A DNA stretch of 64,000 bases from Armatimonadota bacterium (GTDB taxonomy: Bacteria; Armatimonadota; SYMT01): positions 33,662-97,661 of the forward strand of contig JBKBRF010000025.1 in the NCBI GenBank assembly GCA_046292385.1. Direction: 5' to 3'. The translations under genes and the position numbers were made by a program. Below are positions 8,424 to 30,675 of the stretch, piece after piece. Below the pieces are notes generated by a model. It worked only from the letters and a program-made list of their open reading frames with translations. It was not told the DNA's origin and searched no databases. Position 1 is the first letter of the stretch; each line of letters begins with the position of its first letter.

Positions 8424-8433
8424 GACGTAACCG

Positions 8434-12019: not shown

Positions 12020-13171
12020 ATGAAGCTTCTCCTCACTCCCGTCGCCCTGGCTGCCGCCGCAGCGGCCGCGGTGGCGCTGACTGCCGCGCCGGCGGCCCAG
12101 AGCGCCCAGGCCGGCGTCAAGCGGACGCAGTTCGGCACGCTGGAAGACGGCCGCCGAGTCGATCTCTACACCCTCACCAACCAGAACGGCCTGGTCGCGA
12201 AGATCACCACCTACGGCGCCATCCTGACGGAGCTGCACGTGCCGGACAAGAACGGCAAGCTCGGCAACGTGGTGCTCGGCTTCAACAAGCTGCAGCCCTA
12301 TCTCGACGGCAGCCCGTTCTTCGGCGCCACCACCGGCCGGGTGGCGAACCGCATCGCCAAGGGGCAGTTCAAGCTCGACGGGCGGACCTACCGGCTCGCG
12401 GTAAACAACGGCCCGAACCACCTGCACGGCGGCGAGAAGGGCTTCGACAAGGTGCTCTGGACCGCCGCGCCGATCGCCTCGCCGCACGGTCCGGCGGTCG
12501 AGTTCCGCTACCGCAGCCCGCACATGGAAGAGGGCTACCCGGGCAACCTCGACACGGCGGTCGTCTACACGCTCACCAACAAGAACGAGCTGCGGCTGGA
12601 TTACACCGCCACCACCGACCGCGCTACGCCGGTCAACCTGACCCACCACAGCTACTTCAACCTGGCCGGCTCCGGGAAGATCCTGGACCACGTGCTCTAC
12701 CTGAACGCGAACCGATACACGCCGTGGGACGACACCTTCATCCCCACCGGCAAGATCGCCAGCGTCAAGGGCACCCCGTTCGACTTCACCAAGCCGACGC
12801 GGATCGGCTCCCGCTTCAACCGGCTCCGTCCGAACGCGGCGACGGGCGACCCGGGCGGCTACGACCTGAACTACGTCCTGAACGGCGGGGGCAAGTCGGT
12901 GGCGCTCGCGGCGCGCGTCAGCGAGCCGAAGACCGGCCGCGTGATGGAGATCTACACCGACGAGCCGGGCATCCAGTTCTACACCGGCAACTACCTGGAC
13001 GGCACCCTCAAGGGCGTCGGCGGGGTCACCTATACCAAGAACAGCGGCCTCTGCCTGGAGACCCAGCACTACCCCGACTCGATCAACCAGCCGAACTTCC
13101 CGTCGGTCGTGCTGCGTCCGGGTCAGATCTACCGGCAGACCACGGTCCACCGCTTCAGCGCCGGCAAGTAA
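12020..13171 (+). CDS. galM: Aldose 1-epimerase (mutarotase), with signal peptide
   Basis: GRVANRI, NHLHGG, GYPG, NLTHHSYFNL, QFYTGN, CLETQHYPD. Confidence 0.93.
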   Translation: MKLLLTPVALAAAAAAAVALTAAPAAQSAQAGVKRTQFGTLEDGRRVDLYTLTNQNGLVAKITTYGAILTELHVPDKNGKLGNVVLGFNKLQPYLDGSPFFGATTGRVANRIAKGQFKLDGRTYRLAVNNGPNHLHGGEKGFDKVLWTAAPIASPHGPAVEFRYRSPHMEEGYPGNLDTAVVYTLTNKNELRLDYTATTDRATPVNLTHHSYFNLAGSGKILDHVLYLNANRYTPWDDTFIPTGKIASVKGTPFDFTKPTRIGSRFNRLRPNAATGDPGGYDLNYVLNGGGKSVALAARVSEPKTGRVMEIYTDEPGIQFYTGNYLDGTLKGVGGVTYTKNSGLCLETQHYPDSINQPNFPSVVLRPGQIYRQTTVHRFSAGK

Positions 13172-13193
13172 CGCGCGCAGATCGGCCGAACCA

Positions 13194-13230: not shown

Positions 13231-13245
13231 GGCGAAGCAATCTGA

Positions 13246-13555
13246 GGAGCCTGGAGGCGCTGCCGAAGGCAGTGGTGCAAGGCTCCCCTTGTGAAGGCCC
13301 CTAGCGAGGGGCCTTTGCTTGAGCCGGACGGAGCGGCCCGTGAACCGCAGCCCTGGAGCAACCGCAGCCAGCGGTCGCGGAGCTCAGGCTACCGGCGAGC
13401 ACGCCCGGACCAGCCCGCTAGCGGAGGCGCAGCCGGAGCGTGAAAGGGCTGTGGGAGGGCCAAGCACGCGTGAGGGCCGCTCCGGGAGGTGAGGGCACGG
13501 GGTGGAACTGCGGCGAGATCACGCTCTCGGGCAGTCAGCGACTGAATCCGACATC
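13246..13555 (+). ncRNA. Unidentified structured RNA/repeat element, copy 1
   Basis: Collinear motifs and covarying helices shared with 28366-28695. Confidence 0.65.
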
Positions 13556-13575
13556 AAACTAGCCAGGTAACCGCC

Positions 13576-14967
13576 ATGCGAACTATCCTCCCCCTCCTCC
13601 TCGCCACGCCGCTTCTCACAGCCGCAGCGCTCCCCGCCGGAAGCGCGGGAAGCGCCCCACGCGACACTAAGCCCCGCGTGCTCGTGCTCACCGACATCAG
13701 CAGCCTCACCGCCGGAGTGCGGGAGCCGGACGACGGCCAGTCGCTGATCCGCTTCCTGCTCTACAGCTGCCATTGGGACGTGGAAGGGCTGGTCGCCAGC
13801 TCGAACATGGGGCACGGGCAGGTGGTCCGCCCGGAGCTGATCCGGCAGGCAGTCGAGGCGTACGGAAAGGTGCTGCCGAACCTCCGGAGGCACCACCCGG
13901 GCTACCCTTCCGCGGCGGCGCTCATGAACGTCGTCAAGGCGGGCCAGCCGGTTGCCGATCGCGGCGTGCCGGTGGAGCGGAGCGTGGGCGAGGGGAAGGA
14001 CACGGAGGCGTCCGAGTGGATCATCCGCCAGGTCGACCGCCGCGACGACCGGCCGCTCTGGGTGCTGATCTGGGGCGGCTCCGCGGACCTGGCGCAGGCG
14101 CTCTGGAAGGTGCGGCAGACCCGCACGCCGGCGGAGGCGGAGCGCTGGATCTCGCGGGTGCGCGTCCACTCGATCGGCGACCAGGACAGCACCGGCCCGT
14201 GGATCCGGGAGCAGTTCCCCACCCTCTTTACCGTGCTGCGGGGGCGCGCGATCCGCGGGATGTACCGCGGCGGCGACCGCTCCCTCGTCTCGCCGGAGTG
14301 GGTGGAGGAGCACGCGCGGAACGGGCACGGACCGCTCGGCGCGCTCTACCCGAACTACAACGGCGGCGACATCTTTCCCGGCCCGGTCCGCGGGATCAAA
14401 GAGGGCGATACTCCCTCGTTCCTCTCGCTCATCCCGAACGGCCTGGGCGACCCCGCGCACCCGGAGTGGGGCGGCTGGGGCGGGCGGCTGCGCGTGGAGG
14501 GCGAGCGGGAGAACCTGCTGAGCGACGCCATCGACCCCCACCCGGACAACGAGAAAGACCACGACCCTCGGATGTCCGGCGTCTACCGCTGGCGGGAGGC
14601 GTACCAGGCCGACTTCCAGGCGCGGCTCGACTGGTGCGTCCGCCCCTACGCCGAGGCGAACCACCCGCCGAAGGTAGAGGTCGCCGGAGCGCTCCGCCGG
14701 ACGGTCCGGCCCGGCCAGTCCGTCACGCTCGACGCCGGCCGGTCCACCGATCCGGACCGCGACCGCCTCACCTACCGCTGGCTCCTCCACGAGGCGGGCA
14801 GCTACGCCGGACCCGTCGAGATCAGCGACGCCTCCTCCGCCCGCGCGCGCCTCACCGTCCCGGCCGACGCCGCCGGACGCACGCTCCACGTAGTGGTCGC
14901 CGTGCGGGACGACGGCACGCCGGCGCTCACCCACTACCGGCGCGTGGTGCTCGACTGCCGGCCCTGA
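13576..14967 (+). CDS. DUF1593 (nucleoside hydrolase-like) secreted protein with C-terminal PKD/REJ-like domain
   Basis: RVLVLTDI...EPDDGQSLIRFLLY, WGG, DQD, KEGDTPSF, GGWGGR, DFQARLDW, ANHPP, LDAGRSTDPD. Confidence 0.88.
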   Translation: MRTILPLLLATPLLTAAALPAGSAGSAPRDTKPRVLVLTDISSLTAGVREPDDGQSLIRFLLYSCHWDVEGLVASSNMGHGQVVRPELIRQAVEAYGKVLPNLRRHHPGYPSAAALMNVVKAGQPVADRGVPVERSVGEGKDTEASEWIIRQVDRRDDRPLWVLIWGGSADLAQALWKVRQTRTPAEAERWISRVRVHSIGDQDSTGPWIREQFPTLFTVLRGRAIRGMYRGGDRSLVSPEWVEEHARNGHGPLGALYPNYNGGDIFPGPVRGIKEGDTPSFLSLIPNGLGDPAHPEWGGWGGRLRVEGERENLLSDAIDPHPDNEKDHDPRMSGVYRWREAYQADFQARLDWCVRPYAEANHPPKVEVAGALRRTVRPGQSVTLDAGRSTDPDRDRLTYRWLLHEAGSYAGPVEISDASSARARLTVPADAAGRTLHVVVAVRDDGTPALTHYRRVVLDCRP

Positions 14968-14970
14968 GGC

Positions 14971-15050
14971 TGTTGCACGTTGGCAAGTTGGCAGGTTTCA
15001 GGTTCCGAACCCCGCTCGCCGTGAGCCAGAACCTGCAACCTGACAACTTG
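14971..15050. repeat. 7-8-mer periodic repeat hairpin (GGTTNCA / AACCTG)
   Basis: Shares CAGGTTTCAGGTTCCGAACCCC exactly with 57713-57734; TTGCACGTTGGCAAGTT occurs reverse-complemented at ~57764-57780. Confidence 0.8.
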
Positions 15051-15080
15051 AATCCGTGAACGCACCGGAACGGAGATTCC

Positions 15081-17059: not shown

Positions 17060-17077
17060 GGGACCGGGAACCGGGAA

Positions 17078-17260
17078 TTCACCGCAGAGACGCGGAGAGC
17101 GCGGAGAGAACCGGAACCAGGGGAGGGGCCTGGCCCGCCTGACGAGTCCGGACAGCGGCCCCGAAGTTTGTCACTTCTGGCTCCCCTTTGCGTTCTTGGC
17201 GTCTTGGCGGTTCAATCCCGGTTCGGGTTCTCTCCGCGTCCTCTGCGTCTCTGCGGTGAA
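17078..17260. repeat. 8-9-mer periodic inverted-repeat element (TTCACCGCAGAGACGC...)
   Basis: 17078-17110 and 17228-17260 form a near-perfect 33-bp inverted repeat; internal CTTTGCGTTCTTGGCGTCTTGGCGGTT. Confidence 0.85.
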
Positions 17261-17272
17261 GCAGGATCGGGA

Positions 17273-18482: not shown

Positions 18483-18554
18483 TTGGTTTCTGCCTGTCGT
18501 TCCCCAAGCCCAGGACAGTCCGGAAGCCGGGTCAGGCACCCGTGCTTAGCCGTT

Positions 18555-18613
18555 AGTCTATCACTGGACTCCAGGCGGATTTTATGCCGCCGTCTATCGG
18601 TGACCCGCGGTCA
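18555..18613. promoter_or_regulatory. Candidate operator palindromes upstream of tetR
   Basis: AGTCtA-TCAC-TgGACT (18555-18570) and TGACC-CGC-GGTCA (18601-18613). Confidence 0.35.
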
Positions 18614-18947
18614 TTATAAGACCCAAGTTCAACGTCGGCACATTTTGGGTTACGGATTACCCTCGATTCGCGTTCCGCCCCGCACCAGCGCGGGGAGGTC
18701 GCGCGAAGGCGCAGCTCGCCCCTACCTGGAGGAGTCAGGAGAGCGGCCCACGGATAGCCGCAAAGAGGAAGAGCTCGTCACGCACCCGTGCGGAGCACAG
18801 GAACGGAGGCAGATTCGAGGCTTCGGCTCTCGCTTGCGCCAGTCGTGAGGGCGGTTCGGTAGGTGCGGCGCACTGACGACCCATGAGCCGGAGCGGCCCC
18901 TTCCGGGAGGGTACAGCCTGCTTCCGCCCGCCCTTTCGGCGGCGCGC

Positions 18948-19571
18948 TCACTCCGTGGCGGGCGTTCCGGCGGGGTTGAAGCGGTTCATCGCCGCCTGGA
19001 GGCCGTCGGTGACGATCGCCTCCACCGCATCGGCGGCGGCGCGGATCGAGTCCTGCACCGGCTCCAGCTCCTCGCGCGTGAACTTGCCGAGCACGTGATC
19101 GACGGTGCCGCCCTTCGGGCCGGACGGGCGGCCGACCCCCACGCGCACCCGGGGGAACTCCGTGGTGCCGAGGTGCTGGATCAGGCTCTTCAGGCCGTTG
19201 TGGCCGCCGGCGGATCCGGAGGGGCGGATGCGGATCCGGCCGGGCGGGAGGTCCATGTCGTCGACCACGACGATGATCTCTTCCGGCCGGAGCTGGAGCA
19301 GCCGCGCCAGCGGAGCCACGCTCTCGCCGGAGAGGTTCATGTAGGTGAGCGGCTTGGCGAGGGCGACGACGGTCTCGCCGATGGCGCCGCGGCCGAAATT
19401 CGCCTGCCGCTCCACCTTACGGGTATCGATGCGGTGGCGCTCGGCGAGGAGGTCCACCACCCGGAAGCCGATGTTGTGGCGCGTGTTGTGGTACTGCGCG
19501 CCCGGGTTGCCCAGCCCCACGATCAGGTGTCGGACCGTCTCGAACGTCGGCTGCCGCCGGAAAAACCGCAT
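18948..19571 (-). CDS. pth: Peptidyl-tRNA hydrolase
   Basis: LIVGLGNPG..Y..TRHNIGF, KPLTYMNLSG, GSAGGHNGLKS. Confidence 0.96.
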   Translation of the reverse strand: MRFFRRQPTFETVRHLIVGLGNPGAQYHNTRHNIGFRVVDLLAERHRIDTRKVERQANFGRGAIGETVVALAKPLTYMNLSGESVAPLARLLQLRPEEIIVVVDDMDLPPGRIRIRPSGSAGGHNGLKSLIQHLGTTEFPRVRVGVGRPSGPKGGTVDHVLGKFTREELEPVQDSIRAAADAVEAIVTDGLQAAMNRFNPAGTPATE

Positions 19572-19584
19572 CGCCTGGCGCGCC

Positions 19585-20559
19585 TCAGAGGTACGGAAGG
19601 AAGAGCTCGCTCACGCTGGAGCCCCGATGGATGCGGTCGATCGCCTCCGCCAGGAGCGGCGCGACGCTGAGCTGGACGAACTTGCTCTTCAGCTTGCCGT
19701 CCGGCTGCGCGATCGTGTCGGTCAGGATCACCTGCTCGACGGCCTCGCAGTATTCCAGGCGGTCGACCGCCGGCCCGGAGAGCACGCCGTGGGTGCACGC
19801 CACCAGGATCCGGGCGGCGCCGCGCTCCTTCAGCGCCTCCACGCCGCCGATGATCGAGCCGCCGGTGTCGATCATGTCGTCGATCACGACGCAGGTCTTG
19901 CCCTGCACCTCGCCGACCACGCTCACCACCTCGCTGCGGTTCGGCTCCGGCCGGCGCTTGTGGATGATCGCCAGGCCGGCGTCGAGCTGCTGCCCCAGCG
20001 CCTGGGCACGGCCGACCCCGCCCTCGTCCGGGGAGACGATGACGACGTTCGAGTCCTTGACGCCCTGGCTGATCAGGTAGTCCGCGATCAGCGGGCCGCC
20101 GTAGAGATGGTCGACCGGAATGGTGAAGAAGCCCTGGATCTGCTCCGCGTGGAGGTCGATCGCCAGGACGCGGTTGGCTCCGGCCAGGGTCAGCAGGTCC
20201 GCGATCAGGCGGGCGGTAATCGGCTCGCGCGGCTTGACCTTCTTATCCTGGCGGGCGTAGCCGTAGTACGGCATCACCACCGTGATCCGCTCCGCGGATG
20301 CGCGGCGGAGGGCGTCGAGGATGATGAGCAGCTCCATCACGTGCTCGTTCACCGGCGCCGACGTCGGCTGGATGACGAAGACATCCATGCCGCGCATGCT
20401 CTCCTCGATCTTCATCCGCACTTCGCCGTCGCTGAAGCGGGTGAGCAGCCGGCGGCACGGCTTCATGCCGAGGTGATTGGCAATCGCTTCGGCCAGCGCC
20501 TCGTGCGCGCCTCCGGAGAGCACCCGGAGGTTGTCTCCTTCAATGCCTGCGAATCCCAC
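19585..20559 (-). CDS. prs: Ribose-phosphate pyrophosphokinase
   Basis: FSDGE, PYYGYARQD, DLHAEQIQGFF, VSPDEGG, IDDMIDTGGS; GTG start at 20559 after GGAGG. Confidence 0.96.
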   Translation of the reverse strand: MGFAGIEGDNLRVLSGGAHEALAEAIANHLGMKPCRRLLTRFSDGEVRMKIEESMRGMDVFVIQPTSAPVNEHVMELLIILDALRRASAERITVVMPYYGYARQDKKVKPREPITARLIADLLTLAGANRVLAIDLHAEQIQGFFTIPVDHLYGGPLIADYLISQGVKDSNVVIVSPDEGGVGRAQALGQQLDAGLAIIHKRRPEPNRSEVVSVVGEVQGKTCVVIDDMIDTGGSIIGGVEALKERGAARILVACTHGVLSGPAVDRLEYCEAVEQVILTDTIAQPDGKLKSKFVQLSVAPLLAEAIDRIHRGSSVSELFLPYL

Positions 20560-20606
20560 GGTCTTGCCTCCCTCTGCGGGTGCGCTTGCGCTCTGCTGCT
20601 CCAGGA

Positions 20607-21998
20607 TCACTCTGCCCCCTCCAGCTCTCTCCGCTTCCGGGCCCAGCCGGCCTTGTTGACCTGCCGCGCCCGTCCAATGGCGAGATCGTCTGCCGGTACG
20701 TCTTCCGTCACCACGCTGCCGGCCGCCACGAAGGAGCCGTCGCCCACGGAGACCGGCGCCACCAGCGTGGCGTGGCTGCCGACGAACGCCCGCCGGCCGA
20801 TCTCCGTGCGGTGCTTGTGCTTGCCGTCGTAGTTGCAGGTGATGGTGCCGGCACCGATGTTCGTCTTCTCCCCTACGAAGGCGTCGCCGATGTAGGCGAG
20901 GTGTCCCATGGAGGCGCCATCTTCCACCTCCGCCTTCTTCAGCTCCACGAAGTTCCCGATCTTGACCTTCCGGCCCACGCGGCAGCCGGGTCGGAGCTGC
21001 GCGAACGGCCCGATCTTGCACTCGTCGCCGACCGTGCTGTCGGTCAGCACCGCCTGCTGCACGGAGACCCGGTCGCCTAGGACGCAGCCGGTGATCCGGG
21101 CTCCCGGCCCGATCTCGCACTCCTCGCCGATCTCCGTCGCGCCGCTCAAGAAGGTCATCGGCCGGATCACGGTGTCGATGCCGATCCGGACGCCCGGCTC
21201 GATGTAGGTGGTGGCCGGGTCCTCGATCGTCACGCCGGCGCGCATCTGCTCCACCAGCACCCGCTTCCGGATGATGGCGGTCGCGGCGGCGAGCTCCACG
21301 CGGTCGTTAATACTCAGCCCTACCCGCGGATCGTCGGCCGTCACGCACTCCACGCGCTCTCCGCCCTCGGAGAGGAGGCGGATCACCTCGGTCAGGTAGA
21401 TCTCACCGGTGGCGGCGTCCGGCTCTACCCGGGAGAGCGTTTCCCAGAGCCGGGCGGAATCGAAAACGTAGGCGCCGGCGTTGATCTCCCGGACCGCCAG
21501 CACCTCCGGCGCGGCGCCGCGCGCCTCCACGACGGCGCGGACGGAGCCGTCCTCCGCCCGGACCACTCGCCCGTAGCTGGCGGGGTCCTCCGGGGTCACC
21601 GCCAGCAGCGTGCAGGCGGCTCCGGTCTGGGCATGCCGTTCGCAGAGACGGGAGACAACCTCGTCCGTCAGCAGCGCGTTATCCGCCTGCAGCACCAGGA
21701 TGGCGCCGCGGGTCTCCTCCAGGCGGGAGCGCGCCGCCAGGACCGCGTGCCCGGTGCCGCGCGGCTCCGCCTGCACCACGTGCTCCAGCTCCGGCCCCAG
21801 CGCCTCGCGCACGGCGTCCGCCTCGTGCCCCACCACCAGCACCAGCCGCGGGATCCCCAGCCGCCGGCAGATCTCCAGGGGGTAGGCGCCCATCGGCTTC
21901 CCGAGAATCCGGTGGGTCGCCTTGGGATAGCGGGACCGCATCCGCGTACCCTTGCCGGCGGCGAGCAGCAGGGCGGCGGAAGGGGTTTGGCTGGACAT
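20607..21998 (-). CDS. glmU: Bifunctional UDP-GlcNAc pyrophosphorylase/glucosamine-1-P acetyltransferase
   Basis: LAAGKGTRMRS..PK, GTGHA, EINAG.Y, GNFVELK, HLAYIGDA, GAGTITCNYDG. Confidence 0.96.
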   Translation of the reverse strand: MSSQTPSAALLLAAGKGTRMRSRYPKATHRILGKPMGAYPLEICRRLGIPRLVLVVGHEADAVREALGPELEHVVQAEPRGTGHAVLAARSRLEETRGAILVLQADNALLTDEVVSRLCERHAQTGAACTLLAVTPEDPASYGRVVRAEDGSVRAVVEARGAAPEVLAVREINAGAYVFDSARLWETLSRVEPDAATGEIYLTEVIRLLSEGGERVECVTADDPRVGLSINDRVELAAATAIIRKRVLVEQMRAGVTIEDPATTYIEPGVRIGIDTVIRPMTFLSGATEIGEECEIGPGARITGCVLGDRVSVQQAVLTDSTVGDECKIGPFAQLRPGCRVGRKVKIGNFVELKKAEVEDGASMGHLAYIGDAFVGEKTNIGAGTITCNYDGKHKHRTEIGRRAFVGSHATLVAPVSVGDGSFVAAGSVVTEDVPADDLAIGRARQVNKAGWARKRRELEGAE

Positions 21999-22320
21999 GA
22001 GCGCGTTCTCCGCGGTCGGAACTCGGCGCCATCCAGGGGGCGTGCCGCCGGTCGCAGCGCGACGGCCCGGCGGCGACAGTACCGCTTCACCACCGCCAGC
22101 GCAGGGTGGCGCGACGGCACCCCACGGCTGCGACGTGGAGAGTGTATCACCCGGGCCGAGACATCCGCCAAGCGCGCGGCCGGGCCGAGAGGAGGGCGCC
22201 GCCGGGAGCCGGGCGAGCGAGACCGCCGGCTCGCCGCACGCGCGCAGCCAGGGCTGCCAGTCCCGGGCGGCTCCGGGACGGTGCGGACGACGAGAGCGGC
22301 GGCCTCGCGGGAATCTGGCG

Positions 22321-22857
22321 CTACTTCGGGGAGAGCAGCATCGTCATCCGGCGGCCTTCCAGCACCGGAGGGCGCTCCACCACGGCGACGTCGGCCAGCG
22401 CCGTGGTCAACCGCTCCATCTGCTTCCGGGCAACCTCGGGATGGCTCATCTCGCGACCGCGGAAGATCAGGGTCACCTGGACCTTGTTGCCTTCCTCGAT
22501 GAAGCGGCGCGCGTCCTTCACGCGGTACTCGATGTCGTGCTCTTCCGTGCCGTACCGCATGCGGATGCCCTTCACGTCGACCGTGTGGGACTTCTTCTTG
22601 GTCTCGCGCTGCTTCTTGGCCTGGTCGTACTTGTACTTCCCATAGTCCAGGATGCGGCAGACCGGGGGTTGGGCCGTCGGCGAGATCTCGACCAGGTCGA
22701 GCCCCTGGTCCTGCGCGAGCTGGAGCGCGCGGCGCGTCTCCATCACGCCGAGCTGGTTGCCCTCCGCGTCGATGACGCGGACTTCCGGCACACGAATGCG
22801 GAAGTTGAGACGTGGCCCCATGTCGCGCGGGCCGCGTCGATCGTTGAAGCGGTTGAT
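22321..22857 (-). CDS. infC: Translation initiation factor IF-3, probable non-canonical ATC start
   Basis: IRVPEVRVID, LDLVEISP.AQPPVCRILDYGKYKY, FRGREMSH; RBS AAGGAAGGT 5' of an in-frame ATC at 22857. Confidence 0.93.
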   Translation of the reverse strand: MNRFNDRRGPRDMGPRLNFRIRVPEVRVIDAEGNQLGVMETRRALQLAQDQGLDLVEISPTAQPPVCRILDYGKYKYDQAKKQRETKKKSHTVDVKGIRMRYGTEEHDIEYRVKDARRFIEEGNKVQVTLIFRGREMSHPEVARKQMERLTTALADVAVVERPPVLEGRRMTMLLSPK

Positions 22858-23025
22858 AGGTGACCTTCCTTTTTCGACCGCCGCGACCGATATCGCGGCG
22901 GGGAACCACTCCGCACACGCCCCAGGGCGGTGCGGACAACGGAGAGAGCTATCGATAGCGTTGCACTCTCTCCTACCCGGAATCCTTCCGAATCCCGCCC
23001 CAAAACGGGGCAGAAAACCGGGAAG

Positions 23026-23054
23026 AGTATAGCGTAGCCTTCTTTCAGCCGCAA
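23026..23054 (-). promoter_or_regulatory. Sigma-70 promoter for infC
   Basis: TTGCGG-N17-TATACT on the minus strand. Confidence 0.6.
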
Positions 23055-23180
23055 TGGCCTGGCAGCGGCCTCTTCTCACTGCGAAGGCGTGTCCGAACGA
23101 ACGCGAAGGCGCGAAGATGGCGAAGGACGCGAAGGGAACCGCAACGGACCAGTGCGGCTGCGCGGAGATAGGATGGTTCC

Positions 23181-23232
23181 TGAGCCCGCGCAGGCGGGCT
23201 TCGCTCTGAGTAGCGCCGAGTTTACTCGCGCG
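23181..23232. repeat. REP-like element
   Basis: TGAGCCCGCGCAGGCGGGCTTCG...GTAGCGCCGAGTTTACTCG; related to the reverse complement of 52439-52488. Confidence 0.65.
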
Positions 23233-23270
23233 AGCCGACGCATTCCGGCGGACACTTCCCCCGTTCGCGA

Positions 23271-24383
23271 TCAGAACCGCGTGAGCCGGAATCGGGAGAG
23301 GTCGTGGCCCGGGTCGGCGTCTTCGGCCAGGCGCGCGGCGATCTGCCCCAGCAGCACGGTGAACTTGAAGCCGTGGCCGGAAAGCCCGCCGATGAAGACC
23401 ACCCGGGGCTCTCCCGGGAGCCGGTCGACGATGAAGTCCTCGTCCGGCGTCATCGTGTAGAGACAGACCTTGCTGAACGTCACCGGCCCGTCCGCCCCGG
23501 GAAGACGGCGCCGGACGTAGCGCCGCAGGTCGTCGTTGACCTCCGACCGGGGCTCGCGGTCCGGGGAGTCCGGATCGAGTGGCGGGCCGGGCCGGTGTAG
23601 GGCGACCTTGACCCCGGGAATCACCCCGTCCAGCGGAAAGCCGTAGTAGTGGCTCTCCATGTCGATCCAGACCGGGAACCGGTCGGACTCGAACGCCCCC
23701 GCGTGAACGCCCGGCTCGAAATGGGCGTACTGCTGCCGCGTGGGCGTCAGGGGCAGCCGCACGCGGTCCGCGAGCAGCGGCCCGGTCCAGGGCCCGGCCG
23801 TAGCGACCACGCGGTCGAACTCCTCGCCCCCGCCGTCCCAGCTGAGCCGCACGCCGCTCGTCCCGCTCTCGATCGCTTCCACCGCCACTCCGAAGCGCAG
23901 CTCCGCTCCGTGAGCCCGAGCGCCCCGCGCGTTGGTCTGCACGCAGCGGGAAGCGCGCACGAAGCCGCTCTGGGCGTCGAAAAGCGCGTACTCCGCGGAG
24001 GAGAGGCGGAACGGCGGGACGCGCTCCTGGGCGTCGCGGGCGCTCAGCCGCTCGTACGGCACGCCGACGGTCCGGAGCGCCGCCTCGGTCGCCGCCATCT
24101 CGGGGTGGCCTTCGGTACCGAAGTAGAGGCCTCCACAGCGCCGGAACAGCTCCTCCCCCGCCTCGCGCTCCAGCTCTTCCCACAGCGGGTAGGCCGCCTC
24201 CATCAGCGCGGCGTAGAGCGGGTCCGGGTAGACCTTGCGGATCACGCGCGAGGCGCCGAACGAGCTGCCGCGGTCGTGGTCGAGCTCGAATTGCTCGAAC
24301 CCGACCACGCGGTGTCCCCCCGCCGCCAGGAAGCGGGCCGCGGCGGTGCCGACGCCTCCCAGGCCTAGAATCGCCACGCGCAT
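23271..24383 (-). CDS. solA: Monomeric sarcosine oxidase / N-methyl-L-tryptophan oxidase family flavoprotein
   Basis: GLGGVG FAD motif, HDRGSSFGASRVIR, CLYTMTPDEDFIVD, SGHGFKF. Confidence 0.88.
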   Translation of the reverse strand: MRVAILGLGGVGTAAARFLAAGGHRVVGFEQFELDHDRGSSFGASRVIRKVYPDPLYAALMEAAYPLWEELEREAGEELFRRCGGLYFGTEGHPEMAATEAALRTVGVPYERLSARDAQERVPPFRLSSAEYALFDAQSGFVRASRCVQTNARGARAHGAELRFGVAVEAIESGTSGVRLSWDGGGEEFDRVVATAGPWTGPLLADRVRLPLTPTRQQYAHFEPGVHAGAFESDRFPVWIDMESHYYGFPLDGVIPGVKVALHRPGPPLDPDSPDREPRSEVNDDLRRYVRRRLPGADGPVTFSKVCLYTMTPDEDFIVDRLPGEPRVVFIGGLSGHGFKFTVLLGQIAARLAEDADPGHDLSRFRLTRF

Positions 24384-24474
24384 GGTAGGAACACTCCAGG
24401 CTGCCGCCATCCTGCTCCGGCTGCGCAGAACCGGGCGGGGGCGGGTAACATGGCAGACGGTGAGACAAGAACGG

Positions 24475-25224
24475 ATGCGGGTCCTTACCTATAATATCGC
24501 CGGCAACCGGGGCCGCGGCCGGGAGCACCTGGAGCAGGTAGCCGAGCTGGTGCTGCGGACCGGAGCGGACCTGGTGGGTCTGCAGGAAGTGATTCACCGG
24601 AACGGTCACGCGGCCCCCGAGGAAGAGCTGGCCCAGATGACGGGGATGCACGCCTGCTACCTGCCGGCGCACCAGCACCGCCGCTACACGCTGGGCAACG
24701 CGGTCCTCTGCCGGGACCCGATCCTGAAAACCGTCTCTCACGACCTGCCCCACCCCTGGCCGGAGCGCCGGGTGCTGCTGGAAGTGGAGACCACGGCGCA
24801 CGGCCTCCCGGTGACGGTCTTCTGCACCCACCTGGTGCACATGGCGCGGGTGGCGCGCCGCTTCCGGCTGGCGCAGGCGACCGCGGTGGCGAAACGGATG
24901 TCCGAATGCTGGCGCCCCCACGTGCTGGTGGGCGACCTCAATACCGCGCCGCACTCGCACGAGCTGCACCCGGTGCGGGAGCTGGGCGGCGTGGACGATC
25001 ACCTGGCCGGCCTCTCCACCTGGCCGGCGCGCCGCCCCTGGGTCCTGTACGACCATATCTGGCCCGGACCCGGGTGGGCGGTCGAGCAGATCGAGGCGCT
25101 GGATCCGCACCTCTCGGACCACCGCCCGCTGCTGGCGCAGCTCGGCTGGAAAGGCGCGCCGAAGTACAACATCATGCCGGACGCGCAGTACCTGCCGCCG
25201 CGCCCGGCGCACGTGGAGCGATAG
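24475..25224 (+). CDS. Endonuclease/exonuclease/phosphatase family protein
   Basis: RVLTYNI, DLVGLQEV, GNAVL, THL, GDLN, YDHI, SDHRP. Confidence 0.9.
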   Translation: MRVLTYNIAGNRGRGREHLEQVAELVLRTGADLVGLQEVIHRNGHAAPEEELAQMTGMHACYLPAHQHRRYTLGNAVLCRDPILKTVSHDLPHPWPERRVLLEVETTAHGLPVTVFCTHLVHMARVARRFRLAQATAVAKRMSECWRPHVLVGDLNTAPHSHELHPVRELGGVDDHLAGLSTWPARRPWVLYDHIWPGPGWAVEQIEALDPHLSDHRPLLAQLGWKGAPKYNIMPDAQYLPPRPAHVER

Positions 25225-25227
25225 GCC

Positions 25228-25995
25228 GTGCCCCCCGGCGGTGCAGGCGCGCTCACCCTCACGCTCGGCGGCAACGCGGCGGTGCTGCTGCAGGCGGACA
25301 ATCTGCGGGTGGCGACCGATCCGTGGCTCTCCGACCGCATCGGGCCCTGGAGCCGCTGGCGACCCGCGGGTCTCCGGCCGGAGGAGCTCGCCCCTCTCGA
25401 TGCCCTGCTGATCTCTCACGCCCACCCGGACCACCTCGACCTGCGCTCCCTGCGCGACCTGCCGCCCGAGACGCCGGTCCTTACCCCGGGCGGCACGCCG
25501 CTCCGCGCGCTCACCCGCGCCGGGTTCCGGAACGTCTTCCCGCAGCGGGAGTGGGAGCCGTGGGAGCGGGAGCGGCTGCGAGTCACCGCGGTGCCCTCGA
25601 TCCACACGCGCTGGTCGCTCGGCTACGTGGTCGAGCTTGGCGGCACCCGCGTCTACTTCGCCGGCGACGCTGGACCCGGCACGCCGTTCGGCGAGATCGC
25701 CCGGCGCTGCGGCCCGATCGACGTGGCGCTGATCCCGGTCGGCGGCTCCGCCCTCGCGCCCGGCCCGTTCCAGCGCCACCTGACCCCCCGCATGGCCGCG
25801 GAGGCGACCGCCGAGCTGCGGCCGTCCGTCGTCGTTCCGATGCACTGGGGGCACGTCCCCTGCGTCCCCGCCTGGCTCGACCGCTTCCGCGGCACCGCCG
25901 AGCGGTTCCGGACGGAGCTGGAAGCGCGCTCCCTCGAGACTCGCCTGCTGCTGCCCGAAGAGGGCGTGCCGACCCCGGTTCCGCTGCGGAGATGA
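25228..25995 (+). CDS. MBL-fold metallohydrolase
   Basis: TDPW, ISHAHPDHLD, YFAGD, VVPMHWG. Confidence 0.9.
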   Translation: MPPGGAGALTLTLGGNAAVLLQADNLRVATDPWLSDRIGPWSRWRPAGLRPEELAPLDALLISHAHPDHLDLRSLRDLPPETPVLTPGGTPLRALTRAGFRNVFPQREWEPWERERLRVTAVPSIHTRWSLGYVVELGGTRVYFAGDAGPGTPFGEIARRCGPIDVALIPVGGSALAPGPFQRHLTPRMAAEATAELRPSVVVPMHWGHVPCVPAWLDRFRGTAERFRTELEARSLETRLLLPEEGVPTPVPLRR

Positions 25996-26228
25996 GCCGC
26001 AGTCAACTCACCCGTCGGCGGCCGGGTCACGTCCGGGATCGCGGGCGCACCGCAGCAGCTCCACCTCTTCCTTGAAACGGAACCCTGTGGAGCGAAGCCT
26101 GAGGGGCGAGCAGGGGGTATTCTGAGAAACGGCGGCGGGGCTGAGCTGCGTAAAGGATTTTGGGGTGCGGCCGGCGGCCCGTCAACCAACTCTCAACCGA
26201 CTGCCGGCGCGGCGGCGGGTCTATCTGC

Positions 26229-26257
26229 TTGACCCCCTGGCCGCGGGTCAATAGAGT
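26229..26257 (+). promoter_or_regulatory. Sigma-70 promoter overlapped by a TTGACCC-N9-GGGTCAA palindrome
   Basis: TTGACC-N17-TAGAGT; perfect 7-bp inverted repeat at 26229-26235/26245-26251. Confidence 0.55.
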
Positions 26258-26303
26258 GGTAGCGGTAGGGCTGCCGCCCGACCGGTCCCGAGGAGTTTTC
26301 CGG

Positions 26304-28289
26304 ATGGCGATTCGACCTGCGCTCCTTACGCTTTCGCTGGTGATCACGCCGGCGCTGGTGATCTACGCGGCCGAGCCGGTCGGCAGCAAGCCTGCCGCCG
26401 CCAAAAAGGCGGCGAAGCCCGCGGCGAGCGAGCCGAAGGCGAAGAAGGTCGACTTCGCTCGCGACGTCACCGCGGTGCTCAAGAAGTACTGCTACAGCTG
26501 CCACAACTCGAAGCAGGAGATCGCCAGCGTCAACCTGGAGCTGCTCACCTCGCAGAAGTCGCTCGCCGAGAAGCGCGACGTCTGGGAGAAGGTGCTCCAC
26601 GTGATGAAGGCGAGCACCATGCCGCCTCGCAACCTGCCGCAGCCGACCAAGGCGGAGCGGGAGCGCCTCTCCACCTGGCTCGACGCGCAGCTCTTCGCCG
26701 TCAACTGCGACCTGAAGGACCCGGGCCGGGTCACGATGCGGCGCCTCAACCGCGTGGAGTACGACAACACGGTCCGCGACCTGACCGGTCTCGACGTGAA
26801 GCCGTCCGAGCTCTTCCCCTCCGACGACGTCGGCTACGGCTTCGACAACATCGGCGACGTGCTCACCATCTCGCCGCTGCTGATGGAGAAGTACCTGAAC
26901 GCGGCGGAGGAGATCGCCGACCGGGCGATCGTCACGCCCGAGTCCCGCGGCGGCAAGCTGCCGGCGGAGCTGCCGGAATCCCACAGGCGGATCATCACCA
27001 CCGCCGCCGCGCCGGACGCCTCGCTGGACGACAAGAAGAAGGCGGCGCGCGCCTCCCTGGCGGAGTTCGGCCGCCGCGCCTACCGCCGCCCGCTGCAGGA
27101 CGGCGAGCTGGACCGCCTGGTCAAGATCGTCGAGCTCTCGGTCAAGGACGGCGACAGCTTCGAGCGCGGAATGCAGCTCGCCACGCAGGCGGTGCTCGTC
27201 TCCCCGCACTTCCTCTTCCGGGTGGAGCTGGACGGTAAGGACAAGGATCCGGCTAAGGCGCGCGACCTGAACGGCTACGAGCTGGCGAGCCGCCTCTCCT
27301 ACTTCCTCTGGAGCACCATGCCGGACGACGAGCTGTTCCGGCTGGCGGAGAGCGGCACGCTGACCCAGCCGAAGGTGCTGGAAGCCCAGGTCCGCCGCAT
27401 GCTCGCGCACGAGAAGGCGTGGGCGCTGGTGGAGAACTTCGGCGAGCAGTGGCTGACGCTGCGGACGCTGAAGACCGCCAGCCCGGACCCGAAGCAGTTC
27501 CCCACCTTCAACGACCAGCTCCGGGACGCGATGCTGACCGAGACGCACATGTTCTTCCAGTCGATCCTGAAGGAAGACAAGAGCGTCCTCGACTTCATCG
27601 ACGGCAACTACACCTACCTGAACGAGCCGCTCGCGAAGCACTACGGCATCGACTTCGTGAAGGGCGACCACTTCCGCAAGGTGGTGCTCACCAACGACCA
27701 GCGCCGCGGCGTGCTGACCCAGGCGAGCATCCTCACCATCACCTCCAACCCGACGCGGACCTCGCCGGTGAAGCGCGGCAAGTGGGTGCTGGAGCAGATC
27801 CTCGGCACCCCGCCGCCCCCGCCGCCGCCGAACGTGCCGGAGCTGGAAGAGGCGAAGGAAGGCCAGGTGCTGAAGGGCACGCTGCGCGAGCGGATGGAGC
27901 AGCACCGGGCGGACCCCGGCTGCGCTTCCTGCCACTTGCGGATGGACGCACTCGGATTCGGGCTGGAGAACTTCGACCCGATCGGCGCGTGGCGTGAAAA
28001 GGATGGCGAGGACCCGATCGACGCCTCCGGCACGCTTCCGTCCGGCGAGGAGTTCAAGACGCCGGTCGAGCTGATCCAGATCCTCAAGGGCGAGAAGGAG
28101 CAGTTCGTCACCCACCTCGCCGGCCAGCTCCTCACGTTCGGCCTCGGCCGCGGCCTGGAGTACTACGACCGCTGCGCCGTCGACGAGATGGTGGCGAAGG
28201 CCGCCAAGGATAACTACCGCTTCTCCACCCTCATCATGGAGATCGTCAAGAGCGACCCGTTCCGGAAGAAGCGGGGAGACGGGAATTAA
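26304..28289 (+). CDS. DUF1587/DUF1592/DUF1588/DUF1585/DUF1595 cytochrome c protein
   Basis: CYSCH, RRLNRVEYDNTVRDL, ELASRLSYFLWSTMPD, TSPVKRGKWVL, CASCH..MD.LGFGLENFDPIG. Confidence 0.92.
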   Translation: MAIRPALLTLSLVITPALVIYAAEPVGSKPAAAKKAAKPAASEPKAKKVDFARDVTAVLKKYCYSCHNSKQEIASVNLELLTSQKSLAEKRDVWEKVLHVMKASTMPPRNLPQPTKAERERLSTWLDAQLFAVNCDLKDPGRVTMRRLNRVEYDNTVRDLTGLDVKPSELFPSDDVGYGFDNIGDVLTISPLLMEKYLNAAEEIADRAIVTPESRGGKLPAELPESHRRIITTAAAPDASLDDKKKAARASLAEFGRRAYRRPLQDGELDRLVKIVELSVKDGDSFERGMQLATQAVLVSPHFLFRVELDGKDKDPAKARDLNGYELASRLSYFLWSTMPDDELFRLAESGTLTQPKVLEAQVRRMLAHEKAWALVENFGEQWLTLRTLKTASPDPKQFPTFNDQLRDAMLTETHMFFQSILKEDKSVLDFIDGNYTYLNEPLAKHYGIDFVKGDHFRKVVLTNDQRRGVLTQASILTITSNPTRTSPVKRGKWVLEQILGTPPPPPPPNVPELEEAKEGQVLKGTLRERMEQHRADPGCASCHLRMDALGFGLENFDPIGAWREKDGEDPIDASGTLPSGEEFKTPVELIQILKGEKEQFVTHLAGQLLTFGLGRGLEYYDRCAVDEMVAKAAKDNYRFSTLIMEIVKSDPFRKKRGDGN

Positions 28290-28342
28290 AGGCAAAAGGC
28301 TAAAGGCAGAAGGCTAAAGGGGCTGAAGGCAGAGGCTGAAGG
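28287..28342. repeat. Heptamer tandem repeat (NNAAGGC) starting at the DUF1592 gene stop codon
   Basis: TAAAGGC AAAAGGC TAAAGGC AGAAGGC TAAAGGG GC TGAAGGC AGAGGC TGAAGG. Confidence 0.88.
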
Positions 28343-28365
28343 TTCACGCCCGCCGGAACCGCTGG

Positions 28366-28695
28366 CGTCCGGAGGAGCAGCCGGAGGCTGGGCCGGAGGA
28401 CGGCACTTGTGACCACCCCTGGGCGCCAGGGGTGGTTGCTCGAAGGGCCGGGATTCAGCCCGTGAACCGAGCTACGGTTGAGATCCGTAGCTGCGGCGCG
28501 GGAAAAGCCTGCCGAGGTGAACTCCCGGAGCGGCCCGCTAACGGAGCGAAGCGGAGTGTGAAAGGGCCGGCGGAGGGCCGACGCCGCGGGAGGGCTGAAT
28601 CCCGGCACAAGGGCGCGGGGTCGGACACTCGGAATGGACGCCGCCGGGCGGAAGGCGTCGTAAAGCTCTGGTGTCAGGGTTCGAGCCGGACAGAT
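28366..28695 (+). ncRNA. Unidentified structured RNA/repeat element, copy 2
   Basis: 15-bp long-range helix 28447-28461/28592-28606 and motifs collinear with 13246-13555. Confidence 0.65.
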
Positions 28696-28881
28696 GACGC
28701 TGTCGCCGAGCAAGCTCCGCCCGCGGCCCCGACAACTTTGGCTTCGCTGGCGGCTCGCACTCTGTTCGCAGGGTTTTCGCCGGGAAACCTAAAACAACTC
28801 AACGGCGGGCTCGCTCGCCCGGTGTCCTAGATCGGGTATAGGGTAGATACGAGTATTCCCTTCGGTAACGAGGAAGCGTGC

Positions 28882-30228
28882 ATGATCGACAAGCAACTGC
28901 CACGGCGGACGTTCCTGCGTGGGATGGGGACCGCCATGTCCCTCCCGCTGCTGGAGGCGATGCTCCCGTCCTCCGCGCTCGCCGCGCCGGACGTGAAGAA
29001 GGCCCCCCAGCGGATCGCATTCCTCTTTGTGCCGAACGGCGTGCACATGCAGGACTGGACGCCCAAGACCGAGGGCAGCCTGGAAGAACTGCCGTTCGTG
29101 CTGGAGCCGCTCAAGGAGATCCGGCACAAGGTCTCCGTCCTGACCAACCTGACGCACGACAAGGCGCGGCCGAACGGCGATGGCCCGGGCGACCACGCCC
29201 GCTCCGCCTCCGCGTTCCTGACCGCCTCCCAGCCGCGGAAGACGGCCGGGGCGGACATCCACGTCGGCGTCTCCGTAGACCAGGTGGCGGCGAAGCATAT
29301 CGGCCGCAACACCCGCTTCGCCTCTCTCGAGCTCGGCTGCGAGCGGGGCCGGCTGGCCGGCAACTGCGACTCCGGGTATAGCTGCGCCTACTCCAACGCG
29401 ATCTCCTGGCAGTCCCCCACCACGCCGGTGGCGAAGGAAGTCGACCCCCGCCTCGTCTTCGAGCGGCTCTTCGGGAGCGGCAGCAAGGAGAGCGCCGAGG
29501 CGCGGGCCAAGCGCGAGCGGAACCGGCTGAGCATCCTCGATTACGTGATGGACGACGCCAAGCAGCTCCAGAAGCAGCTCGGCGTGAAGGACCAGCAGAA
29601 GCTGGATGAGTACTTCACCGGCGTCCGCGAGATCGAGAAGCGGATCGAGCTGGCGCAGCAGGGGCAGAGCACCGTGAGCGCCAGCGGCTACACCCCGCCG
29701 AGCGGCATCCCGAAGGACTACGCGGAGCACCTGCGGCTGATGGCAGACATGATGGTGCTGGCGTTCCAGACCGACCAGACCCGCGTGCTCACCTTTATGC
29801 TGGCCAACGAGGGGAGCAACCGGCCGTACCCGATGCTGGAGATCCCGGACGGTCACCACGACCTCTCGCACCACGGCGGCGACAAGGTGAAGCACGACAA
29901 GATCCGGCGGATCAACCGGTTTCACGTGGAGACGCTGGCCTACGCGCTGCAGAAGCTCGACAGCATCAAGGAAGGCGACCAGACGATTCTCGACAACTCG
30001 ATGATCGTCTACGGCTGCGCGATCAGCGACGGCAACCGCCACAACCACGACGAGCTGCCGGTCCTGCTCGCGGGCCGCGGCGGCGGCTGGATCGACTCCG
30101 GGCGGCACATCGTCTACCAGGACGAGACCCCGATGGCGAACCTCTTCGTCACGATGCTGAACCGCGCGGGCGTGAAGACCGACGCCTTCGGCGACAGCAC
30201 CGGGCCGCTCGACATGCTCGACAAGTAG
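28882..30228 (+). CDS. DUF1552 domain protein (Tat-type leader)
   Basis: RRTFLRG.G.AMSLPLLEAM, PNG, SVDQV, PR.VFERLF, HHDLSHH, SDGNRHNH..LP. Confidence 0.92.
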   Translation: MIDKQLPRRTFLRGMGTAMSLPLLEAMLPSSALAAPDVKKAPQRIAFLFVPNGVHMQDWTPKTEGSLEELPFVLEPLKEIRHKVSVLTNLTHDKARPNGDGPGDHARSASAFLTASQPRKTAGADIHVGVSVDQVAAKHIGRNTRFASLELGCERGRLAGNCDSGYSCAYSNAISWQSPTTPVAKEVDPRLVFERLFGSGSKESAEARAKRERNRLSILDYVMDDAKQLQKQLGVKDQQKLDEYFTGVREIEKRIELAQQGQSTVSASGYTPPSGIPKDYAEHLRLMADMMVLAFQTDQTRVLTFMLANEGSNRPYPMLEIPDGHHDLSHHGGDKVKHDKIRRINRFHVETLAYALQKLDSIKEGDQTILDNSMIVYGCAISDGNRHNHDELPVLLAGRGGGWIDSGRHIVYQDETPMANLFVTMLNRAGVKTDAFGDSTGPLDMLDK

Positions 30229-30250
30229 TCGAGCCGGTAACGACGCACTG

Positions 30251-30299
30251 AAGAGGCCGTGCCCGCCGGGTGATCTCCCGCGCGGGCACGGCCTCTTTT
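30251..30299 (+). terminator. Intrinsic terminator
   Basis: AAGAGGCCGTGCCCGC...GCGGGCACGGCCTCTTTT. Confidence 0.8.
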
Positions 30300-30357
30300 C
30301 GTCTCCGGCGGAGCTCCCCGCCGTCCATCACCGGCAGCCCGCCGTCGGGCGGGTTGC

Positions 30358-30675
30358 TCACGCTCCTCCGAGTGTCTTGAACGGGTCCGGCTCGACCTGG
30401 CGCCGGTCATCCTCGCCGGACGCGAAGGCGTCGATCCGCTCCTGCCGCGCCGCTTCCCGGAGGCGCTGCTCCTGCGCCGGGCCCGGGCCGCCCAACCGGC
30501 GCGGGTTGCGGCACATGTAGCAAGCGCACCGCTTCAGGTAATCGTGGGTGCGCACCGCTACTTCCAGCCTCTCCTGCGGGTCCTCGTAATTAGCCCTCAC
30601 AAAAAAGCTCCGTAGGGCGTGACGGATCATGCGGCGGCGATGATGCCGCCGGAGCGCCCGCGTTGTCGATTTCAC
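30358..30675 (-). CDS. Small basic protein with RRHHR and CxCxxC(R/G)NPR motifs
   Basis: MKSTTRALRRHHRRRM...CACYMCRNPRR; strong RBS GGAGGAGG. Confidence 0.7.
   Translation of the reverse strand: MKSTTRALRRHHRRRMIRHALRSFFVRANYEDPQERLEVAVRTHDYLKRCACYMCRNPRRLGGPGPAQEQRLREAARQERIDAFASGEDDRRQVEPDPFKTLGGA

Follow-up and report, generated by a model that had tools for sequence, protein, structure and literature searches.

The stretch under study is probably a copy of a lineage-specific, non-coding and non-autonomous mobile element that carries a strand-specifically folded module, most likely of RNA, and we give this reading a probability of about 0.6. The element family matches no Rfam family, and copies are known to date from a single family of uncultured Armatimonadota and from a few metagenome contigs. 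Mobility is supported by dispersed copies without orientation bias, by a site that is empty in relatives, and by shortened derivatives that keep both termini. We predict that the element would be moved as DNA by an enzyme acting in trans and that its core would be transcribed as RNA, either by read-through or from within the element. The folded RNA may then help the element itself to propagate or persist; multiplication would continue in lineages whose fold is kept, and single copies would decay or be interrupted.

The window (the whole stretch of DNA analysed, 64,000 nucleotides) was searched with a covariance model of the conserved core, CM R1, which has 259 positions and 45 pairs and was trimmed from a full-length model of 299 positions. 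Only two matches were found in the window. Copy 2 has its conserved structured core, a type A module, at 28363..28620 on the plus strand (239.8 bits, E = 4.8e-55), where it was aligned with 72 further copies. The core of copy 1, a type B module, lies at 13245..13502, also on the plus strand (212.3 bits, E = 1.3e-48). An earlier sequence-only reading had described two collinear stretches with common linkers and pairing helices, and alignment of the two copies found both where it had placed them, with the quoted helix coordinates correct base by base. Its extents, to 28695 and 13555, stood for the cores but not for the 3′ parts, which are weakly conserved tail. When the copies are aligned, column conservation decays 3′ of the ...GGGCGCGGGGT(C/G)GGA motif, and in copy 2 it falls past the GGGCGCGGGGTCGGA motif. 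The tail of copy 2 accordingly occupies 28621..28695 (plus strand), within the earlier interval, and that of copy 1 occupies 13503..13560 (plus strand), ending 16 nt ahead of the ATG of the next gene.

Pfam confirmed that copy 2 lies in the gap between a DUF1592 and a DUF1552 gene, as had been proposed. The ORF upstream (26160..28289, plus strand) encodes a DUF1592/DUF1588/DUF1585/DUF1595 protein, and the ORF downstream (28882..30228, plus strand) encodes a DUF1552 (HXXSHH) protein. Copy 1 is preceded by an ORF for an aldose 1-epimerase (12020..13171, plus strand) and followed by one for a Sde182-like, nucleoside-hydrolase-like protein (13576..14967, plus strand), both assigned by Pfam. All four genes are outside the element. 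A heptamer simple-repeat tract, to which no strand is assigned (28288..28342; Tandem Repeats Finder, period 7/14/23), lies immediately 5′ of copy 2.

In a MAFFT alignment of 73 copies, invariant blocks alternate with variable stems. A first set of these blocks consists of CACTTGTGA, GCTCGA, GCCCGTGAAC, CCCGGAGC and GCTA(G/A)CGGAG, and a second set of GGAG(C/T)GTGAAAGG, GGAGGGCC, CGCGGGAGGGC and AGGGCGCGGGGT. Type-specific consensus folds contain approximately 80 pairs in approximately 260 nt. The predicted fold has a P1 hairpin with internal loops, a P2 hairpin, and a two-part long-range P3 helix that encloses P4, P5, P6/P7 and P8. In copy 2, where all of these features are on the plus strand, P1, which is part of the type-specific RNAalifold consensus, lies at 28366..28402, with the outer stem CGTCC/GGACG and the inner stem-loop CAGCC-GGA-GGCTG; helix 1 is 91% paired over 98 copies. 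The P2 hairpin (CCACCCCTGG / CCAGGGGTGG), the other of the smaller helices placed in copy 2, lies at 28413..28435 and is 98.8% paired, with five of its eight pairs changed on both sides. In other copies, P2 is the place where a second repeat family inserts.

The 5′ strand of P3 in copy 2 (GCTC, an internal loop and GCCGGGATTCAGCCC; 28438..28461) has its partner at 28592-28616 and shows at most 5-6 pair types per position. Covariation and a base check place the 3′ strand (GGGCTGAATCCCGGC, an internal loop and GGGCG) at 28592..28616. A base-by-base check showed that GCCGGGATTCAGCCC (28447-28461) pairs with GGGCTGAATCCCGGC (28592-28606) in copy 2 and that GGAGCGGCCC (13330-13339) pairs with GGGCCGCTCC (13474-13483) in copy 1. 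P4 is a variable hairpin (AGCTACGG / CCGTAGCT; 28470..28492) taken from the MFE fold, and the same position in other copies holds a hairpin of different sequence. The P6/P7 domain (GGCCC ... GCTAACGGAG ... GGAGTGTGAAAG ... GGGCC; 28532..28568), in which four of the five P6 pairs changed on both sides, is the best-conserved block across genera and is kept in the sister-genus genome G005. Mutual-information analysis recovered the same helices and added closing pairs of CGCUC with GGGCG, which join the segment after P2 to the 3′ end. Modelling also allows a possible helix P0, in which the terminal CGGG would pair with CUUG of the conserved linker, and the CACUUGUGA linker and the 3′ GCGGGG are candidates for a pseudoknot pairing. 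GCCC and GGGC motifs recur along the sequence, and many alternative pairings can be drawn.

Covariation was examined in two alignments. RNAalifold applied to the MAFFT alignment of 73 copies returned 43 pairs, 19 of them with compensatory changes. In a CM-guided alignment of 98 matches from three genera, standard pairs filled 95.7% of cells, versus 83.5 ± 0.3% after shuffling, and none of 500 shuffles reached the observed value. The covariation score of these 98 copies was 0.349, versus 0.137 for shuffled alignments and at most 0.090 when partners were slid by 1-3 columns, and 28 of the 45 modelled pairs had changed on both sides. Since the 98-copy alignment was fitted to the model and favours its structure, the MAFFT result serves as an independent check. 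The fold is strand-specific, with 441 G·U versus 22 A·C cells in the modelled pairs of the genome's own 73 copies, and the single-stranded linkers between helices are highly conserved. These results uphold the proposal that covarying stems reflect selection on a folded RNA or ssDNA, and they support the view that selection acts on a large folded single strand.

The element was also compared with known RNA families. A search of the window with Rfam 15 gave no match at the gathering score, and at E ≤ 10 it gave only hairpin-level matches of 9-21 bits, far under threshold. None of the 4227 Rfam models, among them HEARO, group II intron domains, RNase P, tmRNA and riboswitches, matches the element, which agrees with the earlier statement that it belongs to no known RNA family. 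A full-text literature search found nothing on this element.

The sequence-only reading knew of two diverged copies, a number that proved far too small: with CM R1, the source Armatimonadota genome holds about 145. Specifically, 145 of 150 scored candidates matched at E ≤ 1e-5 and 126 scored at least 128 bits. When queried with the two single sequences, nhmmer located 135 merged loci in the same genome; searching with a core profile yielded 158 matches, and BLAST gave at least 40 strong matches per query copy. Because several contigs end within a copy, the copy count is a lower bound. The source genome is a MAG of 7.04 Mb in 91 contigs, with 69% G+C and 98.45% completeness, and all of our genome comparisons are made between MAGs with rough gene calls. 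The copies split into two subtypes, A and B, represented in the window by copy 2 and copy 1 respectively.

Searching relatives with the covariance model, as had been suggested, showed a narrow host range. Three of 151 Armatimonadota genomes were positive (the source genome, G005 and G006), all of them in the family labelled f1, and the other 148 had no CM match. Fuller CM scoring of the two sister genera found 16 copies in G005 and 8 in G006; the remaining four genomes of the family that were searched (69-95% complete) gave no CM match. A pattern scan of 185,579 species genomes returned eight loci, six of them in G005, and a pattern scan of metagenomes returned seven loci, of which five were confirmed by CM at 102-132 bits. 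CM scoring failed to confirm the pattern matches from a Paracoccaceae MAG, a Serratia record and two of the metagenome contigs, and these were discarded. No match to the element was found in viral contigs or in plasmid and phage collections. In a tree of the copies, sequences group by genome and the A/B split falls inside the source-genome clade; the idea that an A/B pair has been conserved since before the genera split was therefore dropped.

The neighbourhoods of the copies are unrelated, as the first two had suggested. Pfam analysis of 136 flanking ORF fragments at 54 loci of the source genome returned unrelated families, with neighbours that include murG/murC, CTP synthase, glutamine synthetase (glnA), SMC, Sua5, sulfatases, oxidoreductases and DUF1552; IS21-type fragments lie beside one of these loci only. 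Neighbours in G005 and G006 are equally diverse and include a PQQ dehydrogenase, a DUF1592-DUF1552 pair, a type I-E cas locus, pfkB and an NRPS-like gene. In the source genome, 60 copies share the strand of the next gene downstream and 75 have that gene on the opposite strand, as counted with GC3-based gene calls spanning 72% of the sequence. Of the solo copies with close neighbours, those between co-directional genes are sense in 13 cases and antisense in nine; ten others lie between convergent genes and six between divergent ones. Some copies are sense-oriented within operons (murG-murC, DUF1592-DUF1552), and solo copies show no conserved upstream promoter block. We rejected a riboswitch or 5′ leader on these grounds, given the lack of a fixed sense position (60 same versus 75 opposite) and the unrelated neighbour families.

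A check for empty sites was also informative. In the source genome murG and murC are 558 nt apart, versus 0-45 nt in G005, G004 and G002, and the 558-nt gap consists of an A-type core and the remnant of a reverse-oriented partner. This site is empty in sister genera. In G006 and G001, murG is not beside murC on the locus examined. With 145 dispersed copies, no orientation bias, an empty site and derivatives that keep both termini, the preference that had been expressed for a mobile non-autonomous element over a riboswitch is supported.

The source genome contains 26 head-to-head pairs of cores (minus then plus strand) with a gap of less than 150 nt, and every one of them combines an A and a B core, in either order. 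One additional head-to-head pair, with a 245-nt gap, was typed A+A, and no tail-to-tail core pairs were seen among source-genome copies. Twelve head-to-head pairs align over approximately 845 bp at 85-90% identity, and similarity stops sharply on both sides. Feature mapping identified 13 composite loci, one of them with internal deletions. The composite is ordered as a left tail of ~122 nt, the A core in reverse, a spacer of ~94 nt, the B core and a right tail of ~65 nt, with both modules reading outward, toward the termini. The left end (...TACTACTCACCG...) and the right end (...GCATCAGCCGCGCTGTG) are not inverted copies of each other. The left end opens with ...(Y)CTG-TACTACTCACCGCGAGAATC... 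and has the hairpin GAGAATCT...AGATTCT, and the right end closes with ...TTGCGGCATCAGCCGCGCTGTG and has the hairpin GCCGC...GCGGC; each end has a subterminal hairpin, and the left and right hairpins differ. No terminal inverted repeats or target duplications were seen at the ends of 12 composite and five short copies. Heptamer simple-repeat tracts surround several composite copies. Solo copies look in part like remnants of doublets, as partner fragments accompany some of them.

Shortened derivatives provide further information on the ends. In five elements of ~402-418 bp, left-tail positions 1-48 are joined through a common 15-nt junction to the B core and right tail, and the flanks on both sides are unrelated from one element to the next. 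The presence of a single internal junction at different sites indicates that the shortened element multiplied after its deletion, which suggests that the termini suffice in cis. In four derivatives the B core is absent or a remnant. The spacer, the A core and some or all of the left tail persist in each of these four, and the right tail in three. The units, of ~402-845 bp, have no consistent ORF. No autonomous parent came to light: both terminal tails (122 nt and 71 nt) and the spacer occurred only beside cores or at contig ends, no larger element with the same ends was found, and no head-to-head pair was 1-6 kb apart.

Adjoining genes were scanned for possible partner enzymes, as the sequence-only reading had advised. 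No transposase, RT or nuclease consistently adjoins the copies among the 136 + 25 + 15 neighbouring ORFs scanned, an IscB-type ORF is absent from the same set, and unannotated gaps beside the G005 copies contain no transposase. The IscB RRXRR domain (PF14239) also had no matches, but its control was silent as well. TnpB (PF07282) had no match in five genomes of the family, with the control positive in 8 of 14 genomes, and nothing links the element to a TnpB omega-RNA, one form of the guide RNA suggested earlier. The source genome has two IS110 genes (on contigs C91 and C6), G006 has one and G005 has none. Neither IS110 locus of the source genome resembles the element, and IS110 was rejected as mobiliser for lack of common sequence. 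No copy adjoins an IS110 gene, G005 has copies without IS110, and the variable parts are compensated stems; nothing links the element to the bridge-RNA type that had also been suggested. RVT_1 gave no candidate in the source genome (98.45% complete, although a MAG may miss repeats) and is present in G005, G006 and G001. A loose likeness to group II intron domain I had been remarked on, but with no RVT_1 in the source genome and no Rfam intron match, a group II intron or retron-type RNA was set aside. Y1_Tnp genes are found in all five family genomes searched, including G001 and G004, which are element-free. Two strong Y1 genes of the source genome (on contigs C51 and C22) are flanked by their own short REP-like palindromes, unlike the element ends; the C51 gene has one copy 5 kb away, and the 15 kb on either side of the C22 gene are free of copies. 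Because their flanking hairpins are different, these Y1 genes were rejected as mobiliser.

The pattern of rare changes bears on the level at which selection acts. Pair states found in at most two copies comprise 12 G·U, 12 A·C, 20 other mismatches and 11 standard pairs, all of them small counts. The absence of strand bias among these presumably recent changes (12:12), versus 441:22 overall, suggests that selection acts on the lineages that proliferate and not on each copy. The spread of singleton states over columns points the same way, since it follows a Poisson distribution (169 zero columns versus 170.1 expected), but this is weak evidence because singletons undercount change at columns that are already variable. 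Around ten cores are cut near model position 56-76, in or next to P2, beside the second repeat family. In composite copies, conserved blocks are 95-99% identical, versus 72-91% for tails and spacer. This contrast could equally arise from constraint on each copy, meaning a host-level function, or from birth-death turnover of competent copies.

The locus occurs in two metatranscriptome runs and several DNA runs, and contigs from the two metatranscriptome runs and two of the DNA runs (contigs only) were compared over 12500-30500. The RNA contigs cover the genes that flank copy 2, stop at 28322 and restart at 28858. The DNA contigs break at the repeat as well, and the interruption of the RNA contigs is therefore uninformative about expression or silence. 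A promoter scan found no sigma-70-like site in a composite, although the sigma-70 pattern may not be the phylum's own, and a terminator scan found one terminator-like site; both results are uninformative for this phylum.

Other explanations for these observations were considered. A chance resemblance or a GC-rich, low-complexity artefact might be expected in a genome of 69% G+C in which recurring GCCC/GGGC motifs permit many alternative pairings. It is refuted by 145 CM matches of up to 240 bits and by the controls, as no shuffle in 500 reached the observed pairing and slid alignments collapsed, and we regard it as exceedingly improbable. The copies could instead be host ncRNA genes or cis-acting modules (mRNA stabilisers, processing sites or protein-sponge RNAs) that were duplicated and are each kept for the benefit of the host. 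The conserved linkers and covarying stems, the strand-specific fold, the persistence of the family in three genera and the sense copies inside operons such as murG-murC and DUF1592-DUF1552 are all consistent with this, as is the slower evolution of the conserved blocks, by a factor of 2-5 relative to the tails and spacer of those copies. However, there is no association with a gene class and no orientation bias relative to neighbours, solo copies have no conserved upstream promoter block, and copies cluster by genome rather than being orthologous across genera, with an empty site in relatives. Many copies are also truncated or interrupted, rare changes disrupt a pair as often as they preserve it, and deletion derivatives retain discrete termini. 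A host function for each copy therefore seems improbable to us.

The selected fold might also be ssDNA, in which case the element would be a giant relative of REPIN/PATE-type repeats moved by an HUH (Y1) transposase during replication. Several observations would fit: the strand-specific constraint, the lack of TIR and TSD with a subterminal hairpin at each end, the 26 REPIN-like head-to-head pairs, which form inverted doublets, the Y1_Tnp genes in all five family genomes searched, and the absence of RT from the source genome and of TnpB from five genomes searched. Nevertheless, the two strong Y1 genes have REP-like hairpins of their own that are unlike the element ends, Y1 genes also occur in the element-free genomes G001 and G004, and the left and right end hairpins differ. 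The multi-junction fold, the conserved single-stranded linkers and the many G·U pairs also speak against ssDNA; to our knowledge, a 260-nt multi-junction fold with these features is without precedent among ssDNA recombination sites. On balance, we think an ssDNA fold unlikely. A further alternative is that the module is a scaffold or guide RNA of the omega-RNA or bridge-RNA type and that most copies are stand-alone, trans-acting RNA genes. TnpB-type RNAs run to the right end of their element, and HEARO, once a multi-copy orphan structured RNA, later proved to be the omega-RNA-type partner of IscB. The structured RNAs predicted here likewise read outward to the element termini, the HEARO precedent is favourable, and the source genome has two IS110-family genes. 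Against this, TnpB is absent from the five family genomes (control positive in 8/14), Rfam gives no HEARO match, G005 has 16 copies yet no IS110, the IS110 loci share nothing with the element, and no copy adjoins a nuclease gene. Moreover, a programmable guide or bridge RNA is expected to vary in its loops, and the variable positions here are compensated stems rather than free loops. We judge a guide function quite improbable. Another reading, doubtful but worth naming, is that the module represents a new class of transposon-borne functional RNA, either a self-processing ribozyme that excises the element from host transcripts or the scaffold of an unrecognised RNA-dependent mobilisation or homing enzyme. 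In either form it would be carried by an ORF-less element as twin outward-reading A/B RNAs, each extending past its end of the element into the neighbouring DNA.

The reading as a non-autonomous mobile element can be compared with known systems. BOX and RUP of pneumococci, ERIC/RU of enterobacteria and Correia of Neisseria are repeats of 100-200 bp that form simple hairpins and mostly have terminal inverted repeats. The behaviour of our element is closest to that of these structured small mobile repeats. Reviews by Delihas treat the structured non-autonomous intergenic repeats of bacteria (PMC2229807, PMC3184786). Such repeats resemble the element in being non-coding and modular, in having about a hundred dispersed intergenic copies with stable predicted folds, in movement in trans by foreign or unidentified enzymes (as proposed here), and in occurring inside operons and at gene ends. 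Unlike them, the element has a multi-branched module of ~260 nt and ~80 pairs in which the single-stranded linkers are conserved and compensatory changes are abundant. It also lacks visible TIR and TSD and forms a twin composite of outward-facing A and B modules. It is MITE-like in being short, non-coding and multi-copy (145 CM matches), but without TIR or TSD it is not a classical MITE.

REPs are 20-40-nt hairpins, and a REPIN is an inverted REP doublet associated with a RAYT Y1 transposase. As in REPINs, head-to-head doublets form a larger repeated unit, TIR and TSD are lacking, and Y1 genes are present in the genome; in contrast, the arms are ~300 nt long, each folds on its own, and the two are only ~65-70% alike. 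Nor do the repeats flank the Y1 genes, whose hairpins differ, as they would in a REPIN/RAYT system. The element shares with HEARO/IscB and TnpB omega-RNA a large, multi-copy, structured RNA-like module that is borne by a mobile element, covaries strongly and was an orphan at discovery. It differs from them in having no Rfam match, no TnpB, no adjoining nuclease ORF and no obvious variable guide segment. Orphan motifs such as Solibacter-1, Rhodopirellula-1 and Acido-1, reportedly described by Weinberg et al. in 2010 and all included in Rfam, are similarly lineage-restricted, have many copies per genome and are defined by covariation. Unlike these motifs, the element matches no Rfam model, and its boundaries and deletion derivatives are demonstrable.

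Small non-coding mobile repeats are common in bacteria, but one built on a 260-nt multi-junction fold of ~80 pairs is unusual, the more so with conserved linkers and strand-specific compensation. HEARO and IscB provide a precedent in which an orphan multi-copy structured RNA proved to be the cofactor of a new enzyme. If the transposon-borne functional RNA considered above were real, the element would be a HEARO-like orphan awaiting its protein or its chemistry. As long as no function has been found, its general importance is limited by a narrow range, which comprises three genera within a single Armatimonadota family and a few metagenome contigs. The family offers a ready-made deep alignment for structure work and a natural setting in which to ask whether an RNA fold is selected to benefit the host or the element itself. 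It also explains many of the assembly breaks and intergenic expansions in these MAGs; in the source genome, core matches (~145 × 260 nt) make up about 0.5% of the sequence.

A second abundant repeat family, separate from the structured element and here called family-2, is present in the window's own genome (G000; Cn denotes its contig n). This repeat is ~265-290 bp long (type copy, C35:70137-70399), carries TIRs of ~25 bp (...GGATACTGTTGGCGAAATC... / ...GATTTCGCCAACAGTATCC...) and looks like a classical MITE. A BLAST search with it returned 104 rows, many of the matches being located at contig ends. The window holds one copy (46734-46953, equivalent to C25:80395-80614).

Family-2 was repeatedly found directly adjoining structured-element cores whose cut falls at approximately model position 56-76, within the palindrome of the P2 hairpin or beside it. 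This was seen at C40:35045-35613, and further sites of this kind are C23:108571, C1:333145, C41:60762, C60:146, C28:212, C43:58830, C68:162 and C74:20638. At the C40 site, family-2 lies between core pieces 6-70 and 62-292, which overlap by ~9 nt. This arrangement is the one that a nested family-2 insertion with target duplication would produce, and P2 seems to be a preferred target of family-2. An IS110-family element of ~1.3 kb (C6:73995-75293) was in turn located within a family-2 repeat. Dozens of other family-2 copies lack this interruption and join its two flanks (C6:73804-73994 and 75294-75367) directly. The elements are thus layered: the structured element hosts family-2, which itself carries IS110. 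The same genome also encodes two Y1 (IS200/RAYT-like) transposases of 145-149 aa (C51:25900-26420 and C22:55560-56400). Each gene is bracketed by a short GC-rich palindrome of its own, GCGAGGGGTT-loop-AACCCCTCGC for the C51 gene and CCGGGGG...CCCCCGG for the C22 gene.

Structured-element copies were also examined in two sister genera of the same family (genomes G005 and G006). In G005, a type I-E CRISPR-cas locus (L107, G005 C3:823000-842999) contains four copies (7641-8722 and 13318-13928), two between cas1 and cas6e and two downstream of cas2, and the cas operon is thereby interrupted by ~2.8 kb. Copies in these genera also form same-strand tandem arrays (L107, 13332-13928; L112, G006 C236, 9019-9939; L113, G006 C47, 3731-4968), with three copies in 1.2 kb in G006. 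No such arrays were seen in G000, whose closely spaced copies are arranged head to head. Eight copies at G000 C40:13652-40025, all on the minus strand and spaced ~1.4-6 kb apart, may mark a segmentally duplicated region.

Many structured-element copies adjoin heptamer simple-repeat tracts, with the unit AAAGGCW in the window (28288-28342) and CCCTCTG/TGTGTCC elsewhere. Such tracts also flank copies of the composite, the ~845-bp unit of two head-to-head cores (e.g., G000 C8:52831 and C10:72536). Word depth in the DNA run rises 3- to 15-fold above a background of ~55-65x at window positions ~16950-17230, 23100-23215, 14970-15040 and 20160-20250. Contigs break at these same positions and, taken together, the raised depth and the breaks suggest additional short repeats in the window. 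The 23100-23215 stretch contains a 9-nt tandem repeat (23101-23135).
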